From the NCBI GenBank assembly GCA_030264375.1, contig JASCQW010000119.1, positions 9,412,069-9,476,068 of the forward strand: a stretch of DNA of 64,000 bases. The letters run 5' to 3'. The notes under the pieces are model-generated. The model was given only the letters and a program-made list of their open reading frames with translations. It made no database searches and was not told the origin of the DNA. This stretch comes from Carcharhinus longimanus. Taxonomy: Eukaryota. The translations under genes and the position numbers were made by a program. Positions 5,511-20,314 of this stretch are shown one piece after another. The stretch's first letter is position 1. Each line of letters opens with the position of its first letter.

Positions 5511-6957
5511 AAATACGCGTGAAAATAAAACATCTAATGGAAATCGGAATGTGTACACCATTCAAGATGATATTTTTTGAACATGTGGCTGTTCCTGACT
5601 TATCATCAATTCTGCATGATTTGGTCATATAATGAGCACATACCTAGCTCTTCTCCTTTAAGTGTCAAACCTGTGAGCAGATAAGTTACCACCTGTAACA
5701 ATGAACGAAATATTTTCCAAAGATTTTAATTGCGATCATATCATTATGTCCTAAACATGAATGACAATATCCAATCTCACTCGTTTACCATTTTGTTTGA
5801 GGTTCCACATTGGAAGATGCAGCCATTGTCGATCAGGTTAATCATTCATTGCAACAATAGTGTCTGAAATTGTCAACCTAGAGGTTGAAAGCACAACTGC
5901 GTGCACGTCCGTTTGAAGCTTTAGCGCACTTCGAGAGGATTCAATGAATATTTTGGTCACGTGCACTCTGATGGAGATATATGCACATCTAATGGATGTG
6001 TTTTCCAAGTGCAAATTTTGTTAGGACGTTGCAGTGTCAATACGTTTTTTTTTCGGAGTCTTGAAAAACAGTGGTGGCGCCAAGCTACAAGAACAATGAA
6101 ATTCTTATCACTTTGTTAAAAATAAAAGTAGAGTACCTTGCGTCCTGTCATGTCCACCATTCGTGAAGGTGGAATTTTGACACACAAAAAATCATGAGAC
6201 TTTTAGTAGTTCCATGGTATATCTGGGTGAATTAAGTAAATCCAGCACGCCTGTGATGATGGGAAACCATTGTTGATCAAGTTTCAGTTCTTTCAGAAGT
6301 GGCACCAATGGCTGCTCAGAGAAATGTAGTCAATGCAGTGCATTGAGTCTTCTCGCAGACATTGCGTAATTAACACACATCTGACTTGTGGCCCATTTAG
6401 TACTTCTCTTAGATAACAGGTTTGCTTAGTGAAAGTTATTAGAGTTAAATGGTGAATGAATGATGTCGTGCTGACTGAAGGGTAGTTCGAAATGTTTTCC
6501 TCAAAAATTCGTTATTCTCATACTGGCCATCCTGCTAAATATGAATCAGATCGACCATGCAGACCGGTATTAATTTCATTTAAATTTACGATTCAAGTCG
6601 GATAAGCTTAAACAAAGTTTAATGGCCCGAGGGCATTCTAGACAATATAATGGTCAGTATTTGAAAACACTTACGTTCCTGTTGTTCACGTAATGTATCC
6701 GCTGAAAGGCAAACATCTGATTTGAAATATTTATGAAACAACATTTTATGTCACAGATATTCAGTATAATCAATTGAAGACATGTAAGAAAACACATTCC
6801 TGCAATAAGAAAAGAAGAAAAACAAATGTCTCTATGGTGCTGCAAAGCTGCTAAAAACTCCCCCGTTGTTAACACCAGAATTGTTATCCTGATACTCTCC
6901 TGGCAGTGTGACTGAATATGAGCATTGGTAGCCAGGGTGGCGCTAGTGTGAGGGGAG

Positions 6958-7908
6958 TGTGGTAATATGATCAGGGTCTGATTTTTTTTTTAAGTCGGAT
7001 TAAATGCGATATCCCAACTTGAAGAACTGGGTAAGTTAACATCAAACACATTCAAACCTCAGGGAAGACAGACTTGATGAAAGTCAAATTTACAAAAAGG
7101 CAGGAACATGTCTGGGCCTGGTCCATCAATCACAAATCAAAGATCATTGCACTCAACTGAGGCATGAGAGGAGATCATCACCACCTATTGCAATGTATTG
7201 GCGTATTGTTAGAAACACAGATTGGACCAGACTTTCTGCCACCTAGACTTACTTATCAGACAACAGGTTACTTGTAAGCAACAGCATCGATGTAGACACC
7301 TGGGAGTGAGCCCCAGTGTCCTGTCAGGCAAACATCAGTAAACCCACTGGGTATTGGGATCCCCCTCTGGAGATCGCATTGGACGGAAACCAGAGACATT
7401 TCTGGAAAGGCAACCAAAAAGGCAGAAATGTATTCATCTCAGACAAACCAGCAGCGAAGACTCTACGATGGAGGCGACATTTACCGTCAGAAGAATGACC
7501 AGAGAAAGAAAGCGNNNNNNNNNNNNNNNNNNNNNNNNNNNNNNNNNNNNNNNNNNNNNNNNNNNNNNNNNNNNNNNNNNNNNNNNNNNNNNNNNNNNNN
7601 NNNNNNNNNNNNNNGGGGGGGAGGGGGGGGCGGAAAGCTGCCATTGGAATTCACTTTCGTGACGAAGGACCAGAGAGACTCAGGAAATTGGGCCTGCACT
7701 TCAACCAAACCATTTTTGTGGTAATATACTTCAAACGGTGGGACCCTCTTTGTTTTAAGTGGGTAATTTAAGGGTTAATATTGCTATAATTAACAAACTT
7801 GCGAGATCTTTTCTTTTATTTGTCCTTTGTCCATCTTGCAGTTAACAGTACTGGGGTAGAACCTTCATTAAGTAAACTGGTCGAAAGTGTCTGAGAGTTA
7901 CACTTACA
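6958..7908 (+). repeat. 5' LTR
   Basis: Starts TGTGGTAATATGATCAGGG; ends ...GAGTTACA (7902) or ...CTTACA (7908). Colinear with 18132-18947, sharing AACATGTCTGGGCCTGG, ACCCACTGGGTATTGGGA, GGACCAGAGAGACTCAG and GTAAACTGGT. Poly(A) signal mutated to AACAAA at 7792. Confidence 0.9.
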
Positions 7909-7910
7909 AT

Positions 7911-7925
7911 TGTCACCCCAGACGC
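7911..7925 (+). promoter_or_regulatory. Primer binding site, tRNA-Arg(CCT)-like
   Basis: TGTCACCCCAGACG just after the LTR end; resembles TGGCACCCCAGATGG, the complement of the vertebrate tRNA-Arg(CCT) 3' end as I recall it; 2 mismatches in 14. Confidence 0.6.
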
Positions 7926-8040
7926 TCCTTCGATACGAAGTGATACATTGCTCAGAAGTCGAACCCTGAATCCGGTTTCTCCAACACTCCATTTGAGCCT
8001 GAACGAAGAGAGTAGATTGCCCCACAAGAAAGCCAGTGTT

Positions 8041-8048
8041 AAGTGAGT
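8041..8048 (+). promoter_or_regulatory. Candidate major splice donor in the proviral leader
   Basis: AA|GTGAGT between PBS and gag ATG, the usual position for a retroviral major splice donor. Confidence 0.4.
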
Positions 8049-8246
8049 GAATGATTAATACAGATTCGAAGACTCAATTAGGCCATAAACCCGGTGTCTG
8101 TATCACGAGATGGACAAACTGCGTTGTTAGAACTAGGATAGTCAAGTGAATTTGGGTAAAATCTACGCAGGGAATTTGCTGAATACTGGACCCTTACCCC
8201 AGTGCTTTAATTATCCTCACGTGACGAATCTTAAAAATAAATAATT

Positions 8247-8995
8247 ATGGACAGTCGTGCTGAATGGGTGGAAGTCCTCCGTTTATATTTGAACCATAAG
8301 AGGTCCAAATATGTGCAGTGAGGTGACACCCCGAAACTGTATCTGGGATCGGAAGGAGATAATTATTGGAATCATGACCATAAAGAAGTCGGTAAGAGGG
8401 CTACAAAGCTTAGGAAGGTGATTACAATCGCCTGATCTCGAGAAAAGCGGGGATTAGTCGTGTTAAACATGACAGAGAGGCAATTGGAATTAGAAATAGA
8501 CACACGAGAGGAAAGGAACCACCTTATTACGATACACATGAACAAGTTCCAGTCTGAATATGATAATGCCCACCAAAAGGCAAAGCACAATGTCAGTGAA
8601 GGAAAGGCTGCTCTGTACAGTTGGAGACAATTAACCATAGATGCAGTGGCCTGCAGGCTGCAGTAAAAGTTTTACACTAAACAGGAAAATAAAATCCTGC
8701 CCGTGCAACATACCAATCCAAATGCCTGCGTGACACTGAAGATTTCTAATCACAACTAGCTATCCAAAGTGATGCAAAGTGTGCATATACCACCAAAACA
8801 CCGGATAGTGACCCACGGGTAGATTGGGGGCGGGGGGTGATTTAGAAAAGGGTGCCTGCCGTTATACAATTGTTAGCGTCACTGTGACCGGGGATACATC
8901 CTCCGTTCCCATTAATGGAACAAACGGCACCACACTAATCAGACATCCCGTCCGGAAAACCCAGTTCCGCCCCTAATCCGCCCCCTTCCCGGAGC
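8247..8995 (+). pseudogene. gag: gag N-terminal region with coiled-coil character; capsid/NC apparently deleted
   Basis: ATG 8247 is in frame (through stops) with ORF 8460..8666 ERQLELEIDTREERNHLITIHMNKFQSEYDNAHQKAKH; Pro-rich stretch near 8960-8990; first ORF after the PBS. Confidence 0.55.
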
Positions 8996-9002
8996 ACTCA
9001 GA

Positions 9003-9185
9003 ATGGGACAATAACAGGAGAGCATAGAAACAGACCAGTTGGAATTTGGACTGGATAATATAATGTGCCATCACCCAGCTATCTTGGTTAAACTCCAGCC
9101 AGAGCCAGAACACATTAGAGGGACCGATCTGATGAGGAAATGCAAAATAATCGTTCTATCCCGCTAAGTGTTCTTTTGGCAAGTA
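9003..9185 (+). pseudogene. pol: Aspartic protease C-terminal half
   Basis: Translates ...LEFGLDNIMCHHPAILVKLQPEPEHIRGTDLMRK, matching the (I/L)LG(R/T)D(L/F) retropepsin C-terminal motif; no DTG/DSG half seen. Confidence 0.55.
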
Positions 9186-9369
9186 AGAACCACTTGTCAA
9201 TTCCCTGTCGAGGTGGGCCACCCACAGATATATAGACCGAATTTCTACTTTTGAAAAATTGTGGATCAGGGCTACAGAAATGATGTAGGACCCTGAAGCA
9301 AACGTATATTAGCCTAACACATAAAAGCATTCGCAGTCACAAGCATGACCATGTCAGAATAACAGGGGA

Positions 9370-10255
9370 AGTAATCATAGAAGGACCTTACTCTAAACCC
9401 CGAAGACAGAACGGCTTCGCTAAGCAAGCCGAAGGGGAAGTGTCCAAGCTGATTAGCATTTTATGAAAACAAGGGATTCTGATCCCCGTTGTTTCCACTA
9501 AGAACTCCTCCATTTGGCCGTTAAGGTAACCAGAGGGTTCCTGAACGTTCACAATTGNNNNNNNNNNAGTAAGATCACCCCAATTACAGCCCCAACAGTG
9601 TTGACTAACCCAGAAACCATGATGAAACAAGCCCCACACACATTTTTTTTTACGTGTTGGACATCAGTAACGGCTTCTGGTTAATTCGCTTAGATCATCT
9701 CTGTGAACACAGATTTGCCTTAATGTTCAAGACACAACAGTGCATCTGGACATGTTTATCACAAGATTTTCTTGCCTTTCCCTTTATATTTCATAAGCGC
9801 TTAGCAAGCTGCTTGGAGAGATTCTCCAAACCTGAATATTTATTCCAAAGCGTAGACGATCTCCTGTTACAGACTGCAACAAAATCGGGACATCTTAAAT
9901 TATTGGAGGAACTGCTGAACCACTCACTACAATAAAGTTAAAGGTAAATCCCAAGAAAACCCAGATCATGAGACCACCGGTCCCTTACTTGGGTACAGGA
10001 GTGACTGAGGAGAAGCATGAGATGTAAAAGAAGCAAGTTGAATCCGTAACACGACTTCCCTTGCAAAGAACATAAACTTGGTGCACTATTTTCTCGGCTT
10101 AGTGAAGGACTATCAGAACAACATCGACGGTTTCGCCACTAAAGCCGCTCCCCTGTCCGAAATTTTATGAAAAAAATACATGGGTCCAGACTATGCGGCA
10201 CACACAAGCAAGTCTCAGACCTCAAACAATCCCTGGCACAAGCCAGTGCCTGATA
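9370..10255 (+). pseudogene. pol: Reverse transcriptase, spuma/class III/loki-like, with stops and frameshifts
   Basis: KQGILIPVVSTKNSSIWP, VLDISNGFW (motif A), RFALMFKTQQCIWTCLSQDF (LPQGF-like), PEYLFQSVDDLLL (YVDD decayed to SVDD at 9849-9860), KVNPKKTQ, VPYLG. Confidence 0.92.
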
Positions 10256-10257
10256 GG

Positions 10258-10545
10258 TACCCAACCCTGAACTCCCCTTTGCCCTTGAAGTAGTGGCCAC
10301 TGATAGTACACTCGCCGCTGAGCCCCTTCCAGAAATGGCGCGGCTCAGCTCAACCCCTTATGCTTCCCACATACTGTGGGGGAAGTACTTTTGTTTTTCC
10401 GGGCAGTGCACCACATTAACTATAAAGTCGGTTTGAACCCTTTCACTATACTTACAGAACACGCCCCGACTCAACTACTGATTAACGGCCGAGTTAAAGA
10501 TGGGGCGGTTAGTCAAAATTGTAGCACAGTAGACATTCGTATCAC
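10258..10545 (+). pseudogene. pol: Tether/connection (degenerate first RNase H fold)
   Basis: PNPELPFALEVVATDSTLAA ... YAS ... AVHHINYKVGLNPFTILTEHAPTQLL resembles the Ty3-type RNase H pattern (PF.L..DAS...AYAS...T.H.PL) without its catalytic residues. Confidence 0.65.
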
Positions 10546-10739
10546 AGTGTTGAGATATTCGGGCGAACATACCCGGGTCTCCACATTCTTGGAAGAACCC
10601 CTTACTTATGGGGACGAGCCTCATGAGTGCCAGGTTCCGGCAATAAAATACCCCAAGCGGCCATTGTTTGTCAAAAGAAAAGATGAAAGGAGCCAGGGGA
10701 ATCATCTAAATCCAGGCTCAGGACAGTTTAAACATTTTT

Positions 10740-10950
10740 TGTTAAGATGAGTCATCCATGGTGAAAGACGTAAACAGGGGGGCATGATGCCGGATGTACG
10801 TGGAATACCAAGAAGGCAAGCCCCTAAGCGAAGTACCCTTAAAACATACAGCACACTTGGATGCACAGACTGCAGAACTGGCAGGAATAGCATATGTAGT
10901 CAGCCACCCTGAGCTGTTCCCTACACCCACAGACATGCACTCCGATAGGA
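10740..10950 (+). pseudogene. pol: Retroviral-type RNase H, N-terminal half, cut by a CR1 insertion
   Basis: Translates DESSMVKDVNRGA*CRMYV...HLDAQTAELAGIAYVV...TDMHSDR, matching the DGS...AG.G...AQ.AEL.A...IYSDS pattern. Confidence 0.75.
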
Positions 10951-13390
10951 TAAGAACATGAGAAATAGGAGCAGGAGTAGGCCATCTGTACCGTCGAGCA
11001 CAATCCACCTTTCAATAAGGCCATAGCTGATATTTTCATGGACTAGCTCCACTTACTGACCCGCTCACCCTAATCCTTATTTGCATTATTTTTGAAAAAT
11101 GCATTTATCCTTCCTTCAAAAAACATTCAATAGATAGCCTCAACTGCTTCACTGCGCAGGGAATTCTACAGGTTTACAACCCTTTGTGTGGAACAAGTTT
11201 GTCATCAACTCTGCTGTAAACCTGCTCCCCCTTATTTTGAAACCATGTCCGCTACTTCTACTTTCACTCGCCAGTGGAAACAACTTCCCTGCTTCTATCC
11301 TATCTATTCCCCTCCTAATCTGATATGTTTCTATATTTTTTCCCTCATTCTTCAGAATATCAGTGAGTACAATCCTAATCTACTCAGTCTCCCCTCGTAA
11401 GTCAACCGTCTCAAATCCTGACTCAACCAAGTTAACCTAGTCCGCAGACCGCTTCCGCCCCCCCCACCCACCCCCCCCCCCCCCCTGCGGNNNNNNNNNN
11501 AAATGTCTGTCTATCATTTCTCAGGTAAGGAGACCAATACATACACAGTACTCCAGATGTGGCCTCACCAGCACGTTACACAACTGCAACATAGTCTCAC
11601 TGTGTTAAAGCTCCTCCCGTCTAGCAATGGAGGACAATATCCCGTTTGCCTCCTTAATTACCCGCTGCACCTACAAACAGACTCCTTGTGATTTTACAAA
11701 GGACCCACAGGTTCCTTTGCAAAGCAAAATGCTGCAATTTTTACTATTCAAATAATCGTCAATTTTGCTGTTATTCTTACCAAAATGGATGATCTCGCAT
11801 TACTAACATTGCACTCCATCTCCAGACTCTCGCTCACTCACTGAGATTACCTATACCCCTTTTCAGACTTTCATCTTTCCCAACACAGTTTGGCCTGCCA
11901 CTCATCTTAGTGTTATCCGCGAATTTTGACACACTGCACTTGTTCCCATACTCCAAATCACCTATAAATCGTAGACTATTGTGGTTCTATCAGTAATCCC
12001 TGAGGCACACCACTAGTCACTGATCGCCAAGCAGAAGAACACCCATTTACTCCCGCCTCCCTTTGCTTTTTGTTAGTTAACCAATCCTTTATCCATGCTA
12101 ATACCTGACCAGTAACACCGTGAACATTTCCCTTATGCAGCAGTCTTTGGTGCGGCACCTTCTCAAATGGCTTCTGGAAATCAATTTACGTCACATCCAC
12201 AGGTTCCCCCTTATCCAGTGCACATGTTATGTTCTCAACGAATTCCACCTAATTAGTCAAACATGACTTGCGCTTCATGAGCCCAAGCTGCTTGTTGCCA
12301 ATGGGGCGATTTTTATCTAAATGTTTCACTTTTTCTGCATTGAGGATAGGTTGAAGCATTTCCCCTAATCGGGAAGTTAAAATAACTGGCCTATTGTCAC
12401 CTGCTTTTCGTTTATCTCCTTTAAAAAAAAATCAAACAGCGGTGTCACATTCCCTGTTTTCTGAGTCCATCGAATTTTGGTAAATTTCCATTAGTGCATT
12501 TGTTATTTCCCCTGCCGTCTCTTTTAGTACCATGATGCATTTCATCTGGGCCATGAGGCTTGTCGACCTTTAAGCCGCATTAGTTTGCCCAAAACTACTT
12601 CTTCCGTGATACTGGCAATATGTAGGTTTTCACCAACGATAGCCTTCCTGTCAACAATTTTTGGCAAGTTACTTGTGTATTCCACCGGGAAGAGAGATTC
12701 AAAAAATGAACCTTGCTCAGCCATTTTCTCTTTTCCAGTTATTACATCCCACTTCTCATCCTCTAAATGACCAATGTTTCTTTAGCCACTCTTCTTCGTT
12801 TTATATATTTGTACAAACTAATGCTATTTCTTATATATTGTGAGCCTGTTTTCTCTAGTGATACATCTTACTGTTCTTTAAACCCTTTTTCTGTGGCTTT
12901 CTGCTGACCTTTAAAGAATTCCCAAAACTCTAGTTTCCAATAATCTTTGTCACTTTACGTGCCTTCTTTCTCTCAATTTGATACTCTCCTTTATTTCCTT
13001 AGATATCCACGGCTGTTCATCTCTGTTTCTCCAGTCCTTCCTTATCAAATTAAACTTTTGAATGATGTTTTGTTTTAGATTATATCTCATGATCTAGGGT
13101 CCTTCTTTCCTGTTCCATGTTACAACCAAATATAACCATTTCAAACCATAAACCAGAGAAATTACACAGAAACAGTATTCTAGTGCACAACAACAAAAAC
13201 TACAATGCCAAGAGCAAAATGAAAAATAAACACTGAGTGATCAATCGACACTCTTCCTTGTATCCTCTGCTCCCTAAATCCATGCGTTCGCCCAACTCCA
13301 AAGCACTCCTCTCAGCTAAGGAGCAATCAGCAACAATGTCGGCCTCGTCTTATTAATGAGAGCTCACAACTCTCTGCCTATTTCCACTTC
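10951..13390 (-). mobile_element. CR1 LINE inserted into pol, internally deleted; 13040-13390 possibly its 5' UTR
   Basis: Tail TAAGAACATGAGAAATAGGAGCAGGAGTAGGCC at 10951; minus ORFs 11976..12158 (PHQRLL...WIKDWL...VTSGVPQG) and 12542..12724 (ITEEVVLGKLMRLK). Confidence 0.88.
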
Positions 13391-13391
13391 A

Positions 13392-13944
13392 TTCACGCCC
13401 CATGTCCTCGTGATGAGGTGATCTAGGCGAGAAATTGAACCTTTACTCGGGCTGAACCTGCCCGAGTCCGAAGTCACAGCCCTCACTCACGAGAATGTCG
13501 TGAGAGCCATCCTGGAAAACAAACAGAACCGCACAACGGGATACAGCCGTTAAGATAGGCAAGGGGAAGGAGCAAAATAAGGCTTACTTTGTCGATAACG
13601 TGAAGTTCTTCGAATATGACATTGGTCAACAGATAATGCTCAGAGTCTTCCAGCCTGGTATGTTCCTCTCCCCCATATAAGCCGGACCCTATCCAGTGGT
13701 ATATAAGACCAGCCCTTCTGAATGCAAGGTCATAGTAGACTACAAGATAACCAGTTTGCACCTTGTCAACCAAATGAAGGCATTTGGCTCCCAGCAAAAT
13801 TTTGACAAATACGACGTTACCCTGGAAGGAATATTTGAGGAACACGGGAGCCCCAGACTCACCCCCATCCACCTGGACCCAAACCACAGTCCACAACCTG
13901 TAACCGATGTTATTGACTCCCATCCAGAACCCCCGGACCAGTAG
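13392..13944 (+). pseudogene. pol: Integrase end-of-core and C-terminal GPY/F domain; HHCC and DDE core missing
   Basis: FTPHVLVMR (G.TP.EL..GR-like), KEQNKAYF, YDIGQQIML, AGPYPVV (13681-13701), HLVNQMKAF. Confidence 0.8.
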
Positions 13945-15190
13945 AACAAAGAACAAAGAACAAAATCAGCCCGGGAAACAGGCCCTTCGGCCCAACGAGC
14001 CCGCGCCTCCATCACAACACCACCAGTCCACCTCTCTACCCTCTGACCCCTATCTAATGTTTTATGGCCATCCAGATTGAGGGAAACTGATTTAGGGACA
14101 AGTTATTCCTGCCAATCAGCCTAACAGCACATCTTTGGGGTGTGGGAGGAAACCGGAGCACCCGGAGAAAACCCACGCANNNNNNNNNNNNNNNNNNNNN
14201 NNNNNNNNNNNNNNNNNNNNNNNNNNNNNNNNNNNNNNNNNNNNNNNNNNNNNNNNNNNNNNNNNNNNNNNNNNNNNNNNNNNNNNNNNNNNNNNNNNNN
14301 NNNNNNNNNNNNNNNNNNNNNNNNNNNNNNNNNNNNNNNNNNNNNNNNNNNNNNNNNNNNNNNNNNNNNNNNNNNNNNNNNNNNNNNNNNNNNNNNNNNN
14401 NNNNNNNNNNNNNNNNNNNNNNNNNNNNNNNNNNNNNNNNNNNNNNNNNNNNNNNNNNNNNNNNNNNNNNNNNNNNNNNNNNNNNNNNNNNNNNNNNNNN
14501 NNNNNNNNNNNNNNNNNNNNNNNNNNNNNNNNNNNNNNNNNNNNNNNNNNNNNNNNNNNNNNNNNNNNNNNNNNNNNNNNNNNNNNNNNNNNNNNNNNNN
14601 NNNNNNNNNNNNNNNNNNNNNNNNNNNNNNNNNNNNNNNNNNNNNNNNNNNNNNNNNNNNNNNNNNNNNNNNNNNNNNNNNNNNNNNNNNNNNNNNNNNN
14701 NNNNNNNNNNNNNNNNNNNNNNNNNNNNNNNNNNNNNNNNNNNNNNNNNNNNNNNNNNNNNNNNNNNNNNNNNNNNNNNNNNNNNNNNNNNNNNNNNNNN
14801 NNNNNNNNNNNNNNNNNNNNNNNNNNNNNNNNNNNNNNNNNNNNNNNNNNNNNNNNNNNNNNNNNNNNNNNNNNNNNNNNNNNNNNNNNNNNNNNNNNNN
14901 NNNNNNNNNNNNNNNNNNNNNNNNNNNNNNNNNNNNNNNNNNNNNNNNNNNNNNNNNNNNNNNNNNNNNNNNNNNNNNNNNNNNNNNNNNNNNNNNNNNN
15001 NNNNNNNNNNNNNNNNNNNNNNNNNNNNNNNNNNNNNNNNNNNNNNNNNNNNNNNNNNNNNNNNNNNNNNNNNNNNNNNNNNNNNNNNNNNNNNNNNNNN
15101 NNNNNNNNNNNNNNNNNNNNNNNNCCGGCCAACATGCGTCACCTCACATTTATCCGGATTAAACTCCATTTGTCATGTATCTGCCCAATC
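13943..15190 (-). mobile_element. CR1 3' fragment with nested V-SINE; middle is N gap
   Basis: AGAACAAAGAACAAAGAAC...GGCCCTTCGGCCC tail; 15125-15190 reads MEFNPDKCEVTHVGR on the minus strand (CR1 RT C-terminus). Confidence 0.8.
14060..14179 (-). mobile_element. V-SINE/HE1-like SINE core, runs into gap
   Basis: GTGTGGGAGGAAACCGGAGCACCCGGAGAAAACCCACGCA, the reverse complement of the V-SINE core. Confidence 0.85.
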
Positions 15191-15589
15191 CCGCCCCAAT
15201 TTAAAGAGCTCCGGGAATAAAGCCATGGCCTCAGGGAACCCGACGCAAAGGATGGGGCATCAGCAAGCCTTCCCCAACACGGCGTGCCAGGCGGTCCGAC
15301 TCCCAGAACCGTTTGACCGAGCGCTCATTACCAGAGGTGATAAAACGGTGGGTCTTTGGCAATCAAAGCCCTCATACTTTGCTTCCCGACACAAAGGAAA
15401 TATCATGGCATCACCGTCCAAATTGTAGATTGTTTCATCCACTCACTCCACGCATCAACGAATTGAAAAAAAAAGCTTCTTCTCTGCCTACATTATACAG
15501 CACCATAATCATCTGACACAGCACCGTTTTGTTGTGGGATGAAGAATCTATTTTTATACTGTCCTACAGTCCTTCAACAACACGGATAC

Positions 15590-17893
15590 ATGCCACAGAC
15601 CCAACATTTTATTTTCACGATATGCAAATTCCTTACTCCACTCAACCCCATTAAACACTGATTGCCGAGCAACCCTTTGCATCACACTATAGAACCCTTA
15701 ATATTCAGTTACTTATTTCTTTGTTTCACTTATTAAACAAAAGGAGTCATATGACATTCTCGTAACGAAATAGCAAAAGGAATCAGGTATTAATAGGAAT
15801 TTAGAGGGGCTACCTTGATCTCCCCCAGAATGAACTACATATACGTAGCTGCTATCCGTCATGCCTCGTCGGAGATAGAACCACAGACTGCACACCAACC
15901 GAAGACTACAATATGAGCCTACGATACACCGGATGCGAGCAAATGTGAGGGAGGCATCCTATGATATACTCCAATACGAGTATCACATATGGGTGAAACA
16001 ACCAAAGAGTGATGCACAAGAAAGCTAATACGAATTCTCATTATTGCTCCCTCGCTCGTGTCTGGTGGGTGCACACTAACCATATATGGAGCTAGCCTGT
16101 CCAACCTATGGCCGATAAAAAAGGGCTGAAATTATGAAAGAGGTCCGCTGGTAAGGTTATTCAAAAAGAGTACATGTAAGACGAAATTAGGAAATGATTA
16201 AGACCAACTGTTAGCATAACCATCGCGAATTGTTTGGAAACCAGCACAGGGATCCACAACTGGGTTGATACCAAAACATACAGGGAAAATATTATTCGAC
16301 AACACACACTACAAATTGGTACCAGTAGTGGTAGATTTAGCTGGAACACAATGATCAGACTGATGTGACTCCCCGCTTGGAAAATTGTTGCTCCACCTGA
16401 CTCAAAGGCCGCTAAGCCGAAGGATTGGAACGCACAAGGAAGGACAGACGTCCAGATCAAAGGACCAGAATAGTAGGGCAATCCTGAATGATATGGCGAC
16501 GGCATACGGAGCGGGGGAATCCATCATTAACACGCTGGATCTGGCTGATTTGGAGAACATGTTGAGAGTCCTAACACACTAAGTTAAAGAGACATTAGAC
16601 CTTACCTGAAATGGAAATGCTCATCAACATGCTGAGAGAGATTTGGCTGAGAACAGTACCAGTATTCTTCTGGTTTCTGTACCAGAAGGTGGTGCCGCAC
16701 TATTAGTCACGTCACGGAGGGAGGAGTGAAGATGATGCCAGACAATAGAAACGAACCCTGTGTAGCATTTATGGGCAATGGATGTCGAGCAGTTAAGAAA
16801 GAGCACCGTTCATTTTCGTAGGAAAAAAGTTCCATCCGGGAACAGTGACAAACAGATTGAAAACCTATACCAAGGGAAAAAAATGCATTCCAACGTCACT
16901 AACTGTCAATTACAACAACTGACAAGATTTGGTCTGACGATAGTTGTGAAGGAACCCCACGGATCGCACTAGGAATGGTGTTTGGGATCCCAGAATCATT
17001 AAGGGATCAGGTCGGGTTGAGATTCTTTGAAGCAAAAGTATTGGAATCAGTAAAGGAGGGATATGGACGGGATAGCAGGTTTCAGAAAGGAGGGTGGTTC
17101 AGAAAGTCGGGAAGCTCATCGGCACCATTCTGGAGAAGTGTGAATACTGACAAAATTGTCCTGTGTCCATATTCGATGTATCAAAATGAACTTGCACTGT
17201 GTAGATTCAGAAAAAAAAAACTATTGAACTAAACTGTACACAGTAAGTTCGAGTTTTAGAAAGGAAGGTCACAGGAATGCTTACACTAGGGGAGATGGTG
17301 CGGGGGTGGGGGGGGGGGGGTGGCGGTAAAGAATATTGTATTGCAACCTCTCCACAAAATTGCCACTCTTCGACAGCCATCTGCAATATCCACAACACTG
17401 CATTTTGCGTTAAACCACACATTCCCGCCAGGATAGATTTGAGGTGGTGGACATTCACAGAAGAGAGAACATAGAAAGTAACGCTAGTGAGGAATTGAGA
17501 CAAAGCTTGAGGGAGCACTTAGGAAAAGAACAACGGTACCGGGATAGCACTTCCACCTGAAAAACGACATCAATTTCGGACTCAATTGATCACAGAAGAC
17601 AAGACCTTTGCCAAAGTGGCGCAACAAATACGGGAAATTTTAAAAACAAGAACACTAGCGCATTTAGAATCAATACATGGTGGGAGGATTTCGCGGATTG
17701 GGGTTCCAATGTCTAAATCCATCTATGGGTCCGCATGTTGTCACACATGGCCGTAATAAGAATCCTAGTTGTGACAGTGCACCTAACAATTCTCGTGTTT
17801 AAACTTGCTCAACGGAAAAATGAATTTCTCCAACACTTGGACAGCTCAAGGCTCATCCGACATCAGGAAAGTCCTAACAATAAAGTGCCTTGA
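15590..17893 (+). pseudogene. env: env-like fusion glycoprotein remnant with many stops/frameshifts; start uncertain
   Basis: Between IN and the 3' LTR. Contains GLIPKHTGKILFDNTHYKLVPVVVDL; R|AILNDMATAYGAGESIINTLDLADLENML (cleavage/fusion peptide/heptad, from 16475); Cys-rich KEYCIATSPQNCHSSTAICNIHNTAFCVKP; NTWWEDFADWGS; hydrophobic TM MLSHMAVIRILVVTVHLTILVF; stop at 17891-17893. Confidence 0.75.
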
Positions 17894-18131
17894 TACTCTC
17901 ATATTTATATTGTAAAATGTACAGTCATTTGCCATTTTGTACTATGCATTGCTTTGATTTGTATTTACCCAATTGATGTATTGTTTTTTTTTACTCTTTT
18001 TCTTCATTACAATTTGTTGGAATTATTATGGGTTAGAATGATACTATCAACCCTGTTATTGCTTGTTGCCATACTTTGGTAAGGATTGTGTTACCCAGTT
18101 CGCTTATGTTCACTGGATCAAGTGCAGAGAA

Positions 18132-18947
18132 TGTGATAATATAATCAGGGCCCAGTTTTAAGGCAGATGAAATTGGATATCTTGAATTAAAGAATTGAAC
18201 ATATTGAAATCAAAAATCATCAAAACTCACATATGCCAGAGTTGACGAAAGTCAAACATACAAAGACACAAACATGTCTGGGCCTGGCCAATCATCACTT
18301 ATCAAAGATCAATGCACTCTACTGAGACCCCCAGGAGTTCATTGCGCCCCATTGAAATGCATTGGCTTATTTTCAGAAGCCCATATCGGGTGAGACTCTT
18401 TGTCACCCAGATTTACTGCAGTTACCCTATCTGACAACAGATTGTGTGCAGGCAACAGAATGGGGAGCAGGCCCCAGTGCCCTGTCAGACAGACGTCAGT
18501 TACCCACTGGGTATTGGGACACCTCCTCCCGTGACTTCATTGGACGGAAAACAGAGATGTTTCTGNNNNNNNNNNNNNNNNNNNNNNNNNNNNNNNNNNN
18601 NNNNNNNNNNNNNNNNNNNNNNNNNNNNNNNNNNNNNTCGATGAGGGAGACAAAACCACCATCCGGAAAAATGACCAGGGAAGGAAGGAAAGCAAACGCT
18701 TCCATCGAGACTCACCTTCTTGACGATGGACCAGAGAGACTCAGAGAACCGGGCCTGCAGATTAGTCAAACCGTCTTTGTGTTTCGTACACTTGAATCTG
18801 GAGTATTCTCCTGTTTGATGTGGGTAATTCATGGATGAATAATGTTATTATTAATAAACTTATATTTGCTCTTGCCCATTTTGCAATTTTGGGCACCAGG
18901 GTAAAACTTTGAGTAGGTAAACTGGTTGAATGCGTCTGCGAGTTACA
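18132..18947 (+). repeat. 3' LTR
   Basis: TGTGATAATATAATCAGGG...TGCGAGTTACA; AATAAA at 18853-18858; preceded by a decayed purine tract (AAGTGCAGAGAA). Confidence 0.9.
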
Positions 18948-20314
18948 GGATAAAGAGGAAGGAATGTTGTGCTTGCTTAACGCTCTGTATGTTAAACATT
19001 AACACTGAGCCTTCTCTGAAGAAAAAAGAAAATTAATGCAATTCCTTGAGGAACAACCATACAACCCTAATGTTTGGCACGTCGTAATCGGGAAAGAAAA
19101 TTCATAATTTCCTCGTTGATCAATCATTCCGTTGGGCTGTTGTGATGCATTGTCAGATTCGGTACTGGAACGTGTTCTGTTAATATGCTGACGCATATAA
19201 ATCATGGACGTGGAATACGCAGTGAAGAATGGAATGATGATATTGCTTTAACATAATAGAGAACAGAACGGTGTATTCAAAGTGTAAGAATCTGACCGGG
19301 GTATGATGGAAAGTCACATGCAAAAAAAAACCGTTCGCATGCGTCTGTGCAGCGGAGTAAAGTGACAATGAAAATCAAAATGTCAAATTGATTATTATTA
19401 GGCACCATTAAATGAGTTGTGATACCATTGGGCAATAACACTTGGACTGTTTATGATCAGCATTTTAAATCATAATTCTGGATTGCCGATTGGTTGCACT
19501 TTCGTGAGGGCTAACCCGACAAATGTGCTGATGCATGACATTCCACTGCGAGATTCCCAGGCAATACGTTCCTCAAACTCTCAGGGAAGTATAATTTTAC
19601 AATTTGCATTTACCCCATCCCAGCAATATTACATAGTGCTATCTTAAACAGAAATATCTGATGGCCCAGTGTGTTTTACTTATATCCTTTCGCATGAAAC
19701 TTAATTAATGTAGGTAAAATATAGTACATTCCCCGACAATGCCCCAGTCATGCCTCAATTCACTGGGAGGACATGCAGTATCCCATAAAGCCCAGCGAGC
19801 ACAAGTATCGACCGCCTCTGAAATTCACTGCTACTTGGGATGATCAGATTAAGATTCGCAAAAAAACCCATTTTCCCTGATCAGTAGACCCTTACATGAC
19901 CGTACAGCACCCGTTCATATCACCCAACTCCAAATCACACTGACTATATCCCTCCTACAACCAATAATATGTCGACAACCAAATATCTTCAACAAATACA
20001 ACGTCCTTGTTTTCGAAAATTGGCAGTGATCTTTATAAGTATAGTTGTGGATGTTGTGAAATTTAAAACTTTTTTTTTGGATTATGAACATATATTTAAC
20101 TCGACAAATTGTCTGTAATGTTGTGCCATAACTATACATTCTGAAAATGTGCATTCACTCATGCTCGCAAGAAGGATTACAGATTGATCTCCAAAATCAC
20201 CGATGATTGAAATGTGTAATTAACGAGGAACTTATGTGCCCAAAGAATGATTGATGCTTTATAATTTACATCTGGAGGGCTTATGTAATTCAAATCTCAC
20301 CGAGTATTGAAGAA

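Follow-up and report, generated by a model that had tools for sequence, protein, structure and literature searches.

A decayed env with a predicted F-type fold in a shark provirus that looks SnRV-like, and an intact distant paralog as a candidate domesticated gene

Introduction

Gamma-type retroviral Env proteins carry a CX6CC motif and an ISD within a short TM ectodomain. A 64,000-nucleotide stretch of Carcharhinus longimanus DNA (assembly GCA_030264375.1, contig JASCQW010000119.1, positions 9,412,069 to 9,476,068 of the forward strand; hereafter the window) contains a broken env whose layout raises the question of whether it descends from a gamma-type SU/TM glycoprotein or from an F-type class I fusogen and, in the latter case, whether the gene was captured or belongs to its retroviral lineage by descent. 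An earlier note, made from the letters of the window alone, had read it as a captured F-like fusogen.

Results

Landmarks and decay of the env remnant

Three-frame translation placed the R codon of the putative cleavage site R|AILNDMATAYGAG at 16475-16477. It is followed by a heptad-like stretch, a Cys block (CIAT..C..C..FC) at about 17337-17410, a second helix, a WW..W motif from 17678, a hydrophobic TM at about 17750-17809 and a stop codon at 17891-17893, in the order that the earlier note had described. The distance from the cleavage site to the TM is ~1.27 kb (~424 codons), in agreement with the ~1.3 kb (~430 codons) given there, and the same span measures 414-461 residues in four full-length env relatives. 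The reported lack of CX6CC and ISD was also borne out: neither was found in the window env region or in the four full-length relatives, and among 40 sister loci ISD was found in none and a CX6CC-like match in two, each with an internal stop. In the window copy the basic cleavage motif has decayed, while 12 of the 40 sister loci keep it immediately ahead of the same peptide. A basic site before the fusion peptide and HRA (in these 12 loci) and HRB before the TM complete the arrangement, with the helices present in the model of P0059, a relative from the bamboo shark Chiloscyllium punctatum (GCC29952.1).

The feature had been taken to start at 15590. We rejected this position as the env start, as it sits in a separate short frame whose end recurs in sister copies. 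Given that several copies have in-frame stops just upstream of 15830 and that the ATG there follows a pyrimidine-rich CAG, env likely starts at 15830, so that the N-subunit would have ~216 codons and the precursor ~680 residues. The short frame between pol and env (15400..15661, forward strand, 5' limit approximate) keeps the same frame and end in sister copies, and this Cys/His-containing frame is a possible accessory gene.

On the forward strand, the env N-terminal subunit (15830..16477) consists of a signal-like start, a Cys-rich N-terminal domain of ~110 aa, a Pro/Thr linker and an F2-like strand. The eroded cleavage site with the putative fusion peptide (16475..16540) leads into an F1-like ectodomain (16541..17677) with heptad A, beta-rich and Cys-rich domains and heptad B, interrupted by stops and frameshifts, and the remnant ends with a Trp-rich membrane-proximal region, the TM, a short tail and the stop (17678..17893). 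Because the fragments are spread over all three frames with many stops and frameshifts, a co-opted gene was rejected for the window copy. It is dead, codes for nothing and is an ordinary insertion.

The provirus around the env

The env lies in a decayed LTR provirus (~6959-18955) with remnants of RT, tether, RNase H and IN and two later insertions. The features that follow are on the forward strand, except the two insertions, which have no strand assigned. The 5' LTR (6959..7909, 3' end approximate) begins with TG and aligns with the 3' LTR at 69-70% and with sister copies. Over 674 aligned sites the two LTRs are 74-76% identical (K2P 0.30-0.32), and conversion of this distance into an absolute age was rejected for want of a reliable shark rate. 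An eroded primer-binding site (PBS) of tRNA-Arg type follows (7910..7927); a clear PBS stands here in five of the eight sister loci examined, and its complement matches the 3' ends of host genes, of which ARAGORN called three out of five tRNA-Arg. The gag remnant (8250..8980), placed by position and by matches to sister copies and likely internally deleted, gave no Pfam match. A broken RT remnant (9323..10063; RVT_1 at E=7e-6, below the curated cut-off) has a tblastn match to P0007, the nearest full Pol relative, and tether and RNase H remnants in a dual RNase H layout (10430..10958) match residues 540-698 of P0007, which has both RT_RNaseH and RNase_H.

A later host-repeat insertion within pol (10950..13330) is unmatched along its length in sister proviruses, and its start recurs as a dispersed repeat. 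It is followed by the integrase C-terminal remnant (13332..13941), whose DNA is matched at 74-76% by sister copies in which IN frames are readable, and by a second insertion that is mostly N here (13947..15188), sister copies passing directly from 13941 to 15189. At the other end, the env stop is ~240 nt from the 3' LTR (18133..18955, 3' end approximate), which is preceded by an eroded polypurine tract (18121..18132) where sister copies show a purine run ahead of the LTR's TG. Another purine run resembling a polypurine tract lies at 6945-6958, ahead of the 5' LTR. No clear target-site duplication was seen around the provirus.

Family copies in the genome and relatives elsewhere

At least 45 DNA matches (65-76% identity, the window itself excluded) and at least 126 env protein matches, the latter in two subfamilies, were found in the 2.68 Gb genome, indicating that the env feature is not a chance pattern. 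No full-length open env was found among the matches of these two window-family subfamilies; the longest stop-free frame was 364 aa among the best matches, and a short contig had one of 519 aa. Two env or pol segments lie close together at each of six loci (L012, L017, L019, L023, L048 and L059), which suggests tandem proviruses or local duplications. One 897-bp contig (L066, G000:C42203) carries a true Baculo_F match (114 bits) in an open frame, and is likely an invertebrate errantivirus contaminant.

A 219-aa family ORF had no match in a word-indexed search for homologs, and a near-length profile search returned five fragments only. An env profile built from 62 natural fragments and searched against 1.84 billion proteins matched 40 of them. 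Ten of the 40 were looked up, and those named belong to four shark genera (Chiloscyllium, Mustelus, Heterodontus and Pristiophorus) and two frog genera (Pelodytes and Xenopus); named relatives of IN and env taken together are mostly from sharks. The env relatives have a core in common from the F2-like strand to the TM, while the N-terminal domain varies and is unrelated between lineages, being annotated as Ig-like in P0059 and giving a weak V-set match in P0088. The N-termini of P0059 and P0088 resemble Ig-like modules set on an F-type core and are possibly host-gene-derived, that of P0059 being without confident structure in the model.

Long intact env relatives are P0067, P0092 and P0088 (from Pelodytes, Xenopus tropicalis LOC116408820 and one contig), and the two frog proteins, paired at 99/98, may be candidate domesticated genes too. 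Env fragments also occur within two annotated shark gene models, P0060 (an fbxo15 isoform) and P0084 (a cadherin-related protein), as exonisation or annotation chimeras.

Sequence and structure searches for a fusogen

A TLV_coat or gamma-type TM as best match, which the earlier note had named as an outcome against its F-type reading, did not appear: TLV_coat gave no profile match in the window frames, the sister ORFs or 20 env relatives. Pfam yielded no fusogen for window frames or sister ORFs either, and PF00523, PF12259 and PF03408 stayed below cut-off, the best being Baculo_F at E=0.0011 in one of the 20 relatives. No fusogen was found by PDB sequence search, and PDB profile searches gave coiled coils only. 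Comparison of the env profile with a true Baculo_F member lined up the Cys pattern without significance (P=0.49; 16-243 of 300 shuffles scored as high). The ESM Atlas held no usable match for the family ORF and one match at 0.82 for P0059, which is a lead only.

The modelling with AlphaFold and Foldseek that the earlier note had proposed gave different results for a fragment and for a full-length relative. The 364-aa family ORF was modelled at pLDDT 57 and had no Foldseek match at E<=0.001. P0059 is a full-length member of the env family (profile E=1.6e-27, profile positions 2-357 of 363) and ~22% identical to the window family. Its AlphaFold model, built with 39 homologs, has a confident core with pLDDT ~75-93 over most of residues 180-600, within a model of pTM 0.43 whose N-terminal 178 residues are not confidently placed. 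Against the PDB, 256 of at least 500 Foldseek matches reached E<=0.001, and all 43 matches listed are paramyxo- or pneumovirus F, the best being hPIV3, RSV and NDV F (E 1-4e-10, best 1.1e-10; TM-target 0.36-0.49). Modest TM-scores of this kind (target-normalised up to ~0.5) are to be expected when a protein that refolds is modelled as a monomer.

Against BFVD, 46 matches at E<=0.001 included fish filovirus GP, baculovirus F, paramyxovirus F, lispivirus G, the Env of WEHV1 and WDSV, and feline foamy Env, the last ranking 33rd and 46th among the matches listed; no gamma-type Env was among the 50 viral rows listed. The top BFVD match is a fish filovirus glycoprotein (Wenling thamnaconus). The model comparison hints that fish filovirus GP and WEHV1/WDSV Env may also be F-type. 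Identity is 9-18% throughout the structural matches.

Taken together, the modelled relative P0059 supports a predicted F-type class I fusogen rather than a gamma SU/TM, as the earlier note had proposed. Its caveat that there might be no fusogen similarity at all held at the sequence level, where none was significant, and failed at the structure level, where the core of the P0059 model matched F.

Affinities of RT, integrase and primer-binding site

Family RTs carry LPQG and YVDD (LPQGF..SP and YVDD in sister copies), while consensus loki RTs read PFGY (nine of 92 places listed). We compared 49 core residues of the window RT by eye, with no tree, with the alignment in the supplement of PMC7947760 (in part), and counted 28 identities to SnRV, 17 to WDSV, 16 to SFV, 16 to MuLV and 15 to a loki. 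P0007 had similar scores with the RT structures of Ty3, MuLV/XMRV and foamy virus, and a viral-contig scan with it gave no match. The closest integrase matches are annotated NYNRIN-like, and PFV integrase is the best PDB match of the family IN. SnRV uses tRNA-Arg as primer. The PBS of the sister copies is likewise complementary to host tRNA-Arg. By this comparison by eye, the RT of the provirus looks SnRV-like, not loki or foamy. SnRV-like ERVs with env are known from the elephant shark (PMC4422223, in part).

An intact distant paralog

The search for intact paralogous ORFs, raised by the earlier note in view of possible co-option, yielded one. L067 (L067:1366-3717; G000:C98:82069858-82072071) is a single intact F-type env ORF outside the window, whose frame is open for 784 codons and which is 86% identical to P0059 over 1-738 with no gap and no stops. 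In this genome search with P0059, a stricter first look, the other 60 matches were weak (20-43% identity), apart from one 58-residue piece at 62%. Within ~40 kb around L067 (~3.8 kb of it N), neither a pol match (six Pol or IN queries) nor a direct repeat of LTR size was found. An 18-row tree joins L067 to P0059 (100/100) and places it in a group with the frog proteins; the window family, ~22% identical to L067, stands outside this group. Tree placement and identity therefore indicate that L067 is a lineage of its own within the shared env family and no copy of the window provirus.

Part of L067 is present in seven public runs of four organisms, none of them listed as RNA. In run X4, one contig covers L067 1248-3825 with 56 differences, and the indels listed within the frame all lie 5' of the likely start. 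Among the 27 coding differences listed (the table has 72 further rows), 19 are synonymous and 19 are at third positions, against an expected synonymous share of 22-29% (P<=1.3e-5; rough omega 0.12-0.17 on these 27). On these sequence grounds, L067 is a candidate domesticated F-type env that is intact, without provirus, conserved across species and under purifying selection.

Discussion

A lineage Env or a sideways acquisition

The reading that we consider probable is that the window holds a broken env, with a predicted class Ib F-type fold, from an old LTR provirus that likely belongs to the SnRV-like clade, and that this is likely a long-standing Env of the lineage and not a fresh capture. 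By analogy with paramyxovirus F and foamy Env (PMC11468914, in part), furin would split the ~680-residue precursor into the short N-subunit and an F1-like ectodomain of ~420 residues. Judging from the fold, heptad A would then extend and insert the fusion peptide before pairing with heptad B to form a six-helix bundle, in the manner of paramyxovirus F. The small, lineage-variable N-terminal domain would likely be a swappable receptor-binding module; an F scaffold can bear such a module N-terminally, as in coronavirus spike (PMC11468914, in part).

The word "captured" in the earlier note found no support. Env of epsilonretroviruses (WEHV1, WDSV) and of foamy viruses is matched by the P0059 model as well, F-like Env has been published for lokiretroviruses (PMC7947760, in part) and foamy viruses (PMC11468914, in part), and relatives occur in several sharks and in frogs. 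An old Env native to the lineage accounts for this no less well than capture. Nothing calls for capture from an RNA virus, and with all structural matches at only 9-18% identity no particular donor is singled out.

An unlikely alternative is that the F-type env was acquired sideways onto an SnRV-like pol, either by a retroviral swap (epsilon, loki or foamy) or from a negative-strand RNA virus donor. It would accord with the best structural scores being those of paramyxo/pneumovirus F, fish filovirus GP and baculovirus F, with the Env-Pol incongruence described as frequent among the ERVs of fishes and amphibians, where class III pol joined to class I env is one example (bioRxiv 2021.11.23.469661, in part), and with SnRV Env not being recognised among the 40 profile matches (10 named), so that SnRV may carry a different Env. 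However, none of the structural matches marks a donor at such identities, and the env family is deeply branched over sharks and frogs, so any capture would be very old.

That the family combines an F-like Env, dual RNase H and a CGIN1/NYNRIN-like integrase, all described as loki traits (PMC7947760, in part), raises the possibility that the element is the first lokiretrovirus in cartilaginous fish, as lokiretroviruses were found in none of three chondrichthyan genomes in the same source; the ectodomain Cys pattern also resembles loki Env by eye. We regard this as highly improbable, since the RT reads LPQG with the loki PFGY motif absent and has 28 of 49 core identities to SnRV versus 15 to a loki (by eye), the PR-RT spacer is short in the nearest full Pol relative but long in loki, and the Env N-subunit has ~216 codons and an extra domain versus ~100-125 in loki. 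That the element is a shark foamy-like ERV, its Env F-like by descent, is hardly credible: foamy Env is class Ib (PMC11468914, in part), shark foamy-like pol is known (PMC5512871, in part) and the family IN best matches PFV integrase in the PDB, but the RT core has only 16 of 49 identities to SFV (by eye), the PBS is of tRNA-Arg and not Lys or Asn type, the ~240 nt between env and the 3' LTR leave no room for accessory genes, a long leader and an inserted receptor-binding domain are absent, and foamy Env ranks low among the BFVD matches listed.

Meaning of a lineage Env and of the intact paralog

We lean towards the view that the SnRV-like ERVs found in sharks and frogs have a so far undescribed F-type Env family with swappable N-terminal modules, and that one member, L067, has become a domesticated single-copy shark gene under strong purifying selection. 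If true, cartilaginous fish would have in L067 a syncytin-like gene or a restriction gene whose scaffold resembles paramyxovirus F. A precedent may exist in geckos, which have co-opted foamy sequences (PMC6669660, in part). F-like retroviral Env is known already, while on an SnRV-like backbone it is apparently undescribed. In literature whose coverage lay largely outside subscription journals, we found no description of F-type Env in SnRV-like ERVs and no report of a domesticated F-type env in sharks. What is new here is the intact distant paralog as a candidate domesticated F-type env.

If an F-type Env on an SnRV-like backbone is true, then together with loki, foamy and (by structural matches) epsilon, most deep-branching retroviral lineages would use the F scaffold. 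Such wide use would favour the view that the retroviral envelope was F-type to begin with and that gamma- and beta-type Env replaced it later, a question raised in PMC7947760 (in part). The main weight thus rests on this evolutionary point and on the candidate domesticated paralog, not on the dead window copy.

Comparison with known systems

Paramyxo- and pneumovirus F, baculovirus F and errantivirus F-type Env (bioRxiv 2023.10.26.564294, in part) have in common with the window family the predicted fold and the order FP-HRA-beta/Cys domains-HRB-TM, whereas identity to paramyxovirus, pneumovirus and baculovirus F is only ~11-14%, with no Fusion_gly or Baculo_F match above cut-off. Epsilonretrovirus Env, described as neither gamma- nor beta-type (bioRxiv 2021.11.23.469661, in part), is matched in structure (WEHV1 at E 7e-8, WDSV at E 3e-6) but is about twice as long, and epsilon pol is class I. 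Foamy Env (class Ib; PMC11468914, in part) has a similarly long F1-like TM subunit with an F core; its receptor-binding domain is inserted between the subunits, whereas the added module of the window family is N-terminal and small. Lokiretrovirus Env (PMC7947760, in part) resembles the family in being an F-like Env on a vertebrate retroviral backbone, with RxKR cleavage, dual RNase H and a NYNRIN-like IN. By contrast, loki differs in RT motif and identity, and the window family has an extra N-terminal domain and another type of fusion peptide. Most alike in the RT core are the SnRV-like ERVs (28 of 49 by eye), namely snakehead retrovirus, CmiERV lineage I of the elephant shark (PMC4422223, in part) and clade Huo (PMC6001957, in part). 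SnRV differs in its cytoplasmic tail of 136 aa versus ~27 aa in the window family, which is without a 3' ORF. SnRV-like ERVs and the window family have cartilaginous-fish hosts in common, and the accessory ORFs of SnRV (PMC12193657, in part) have a likeness in the short frame between pol and env.
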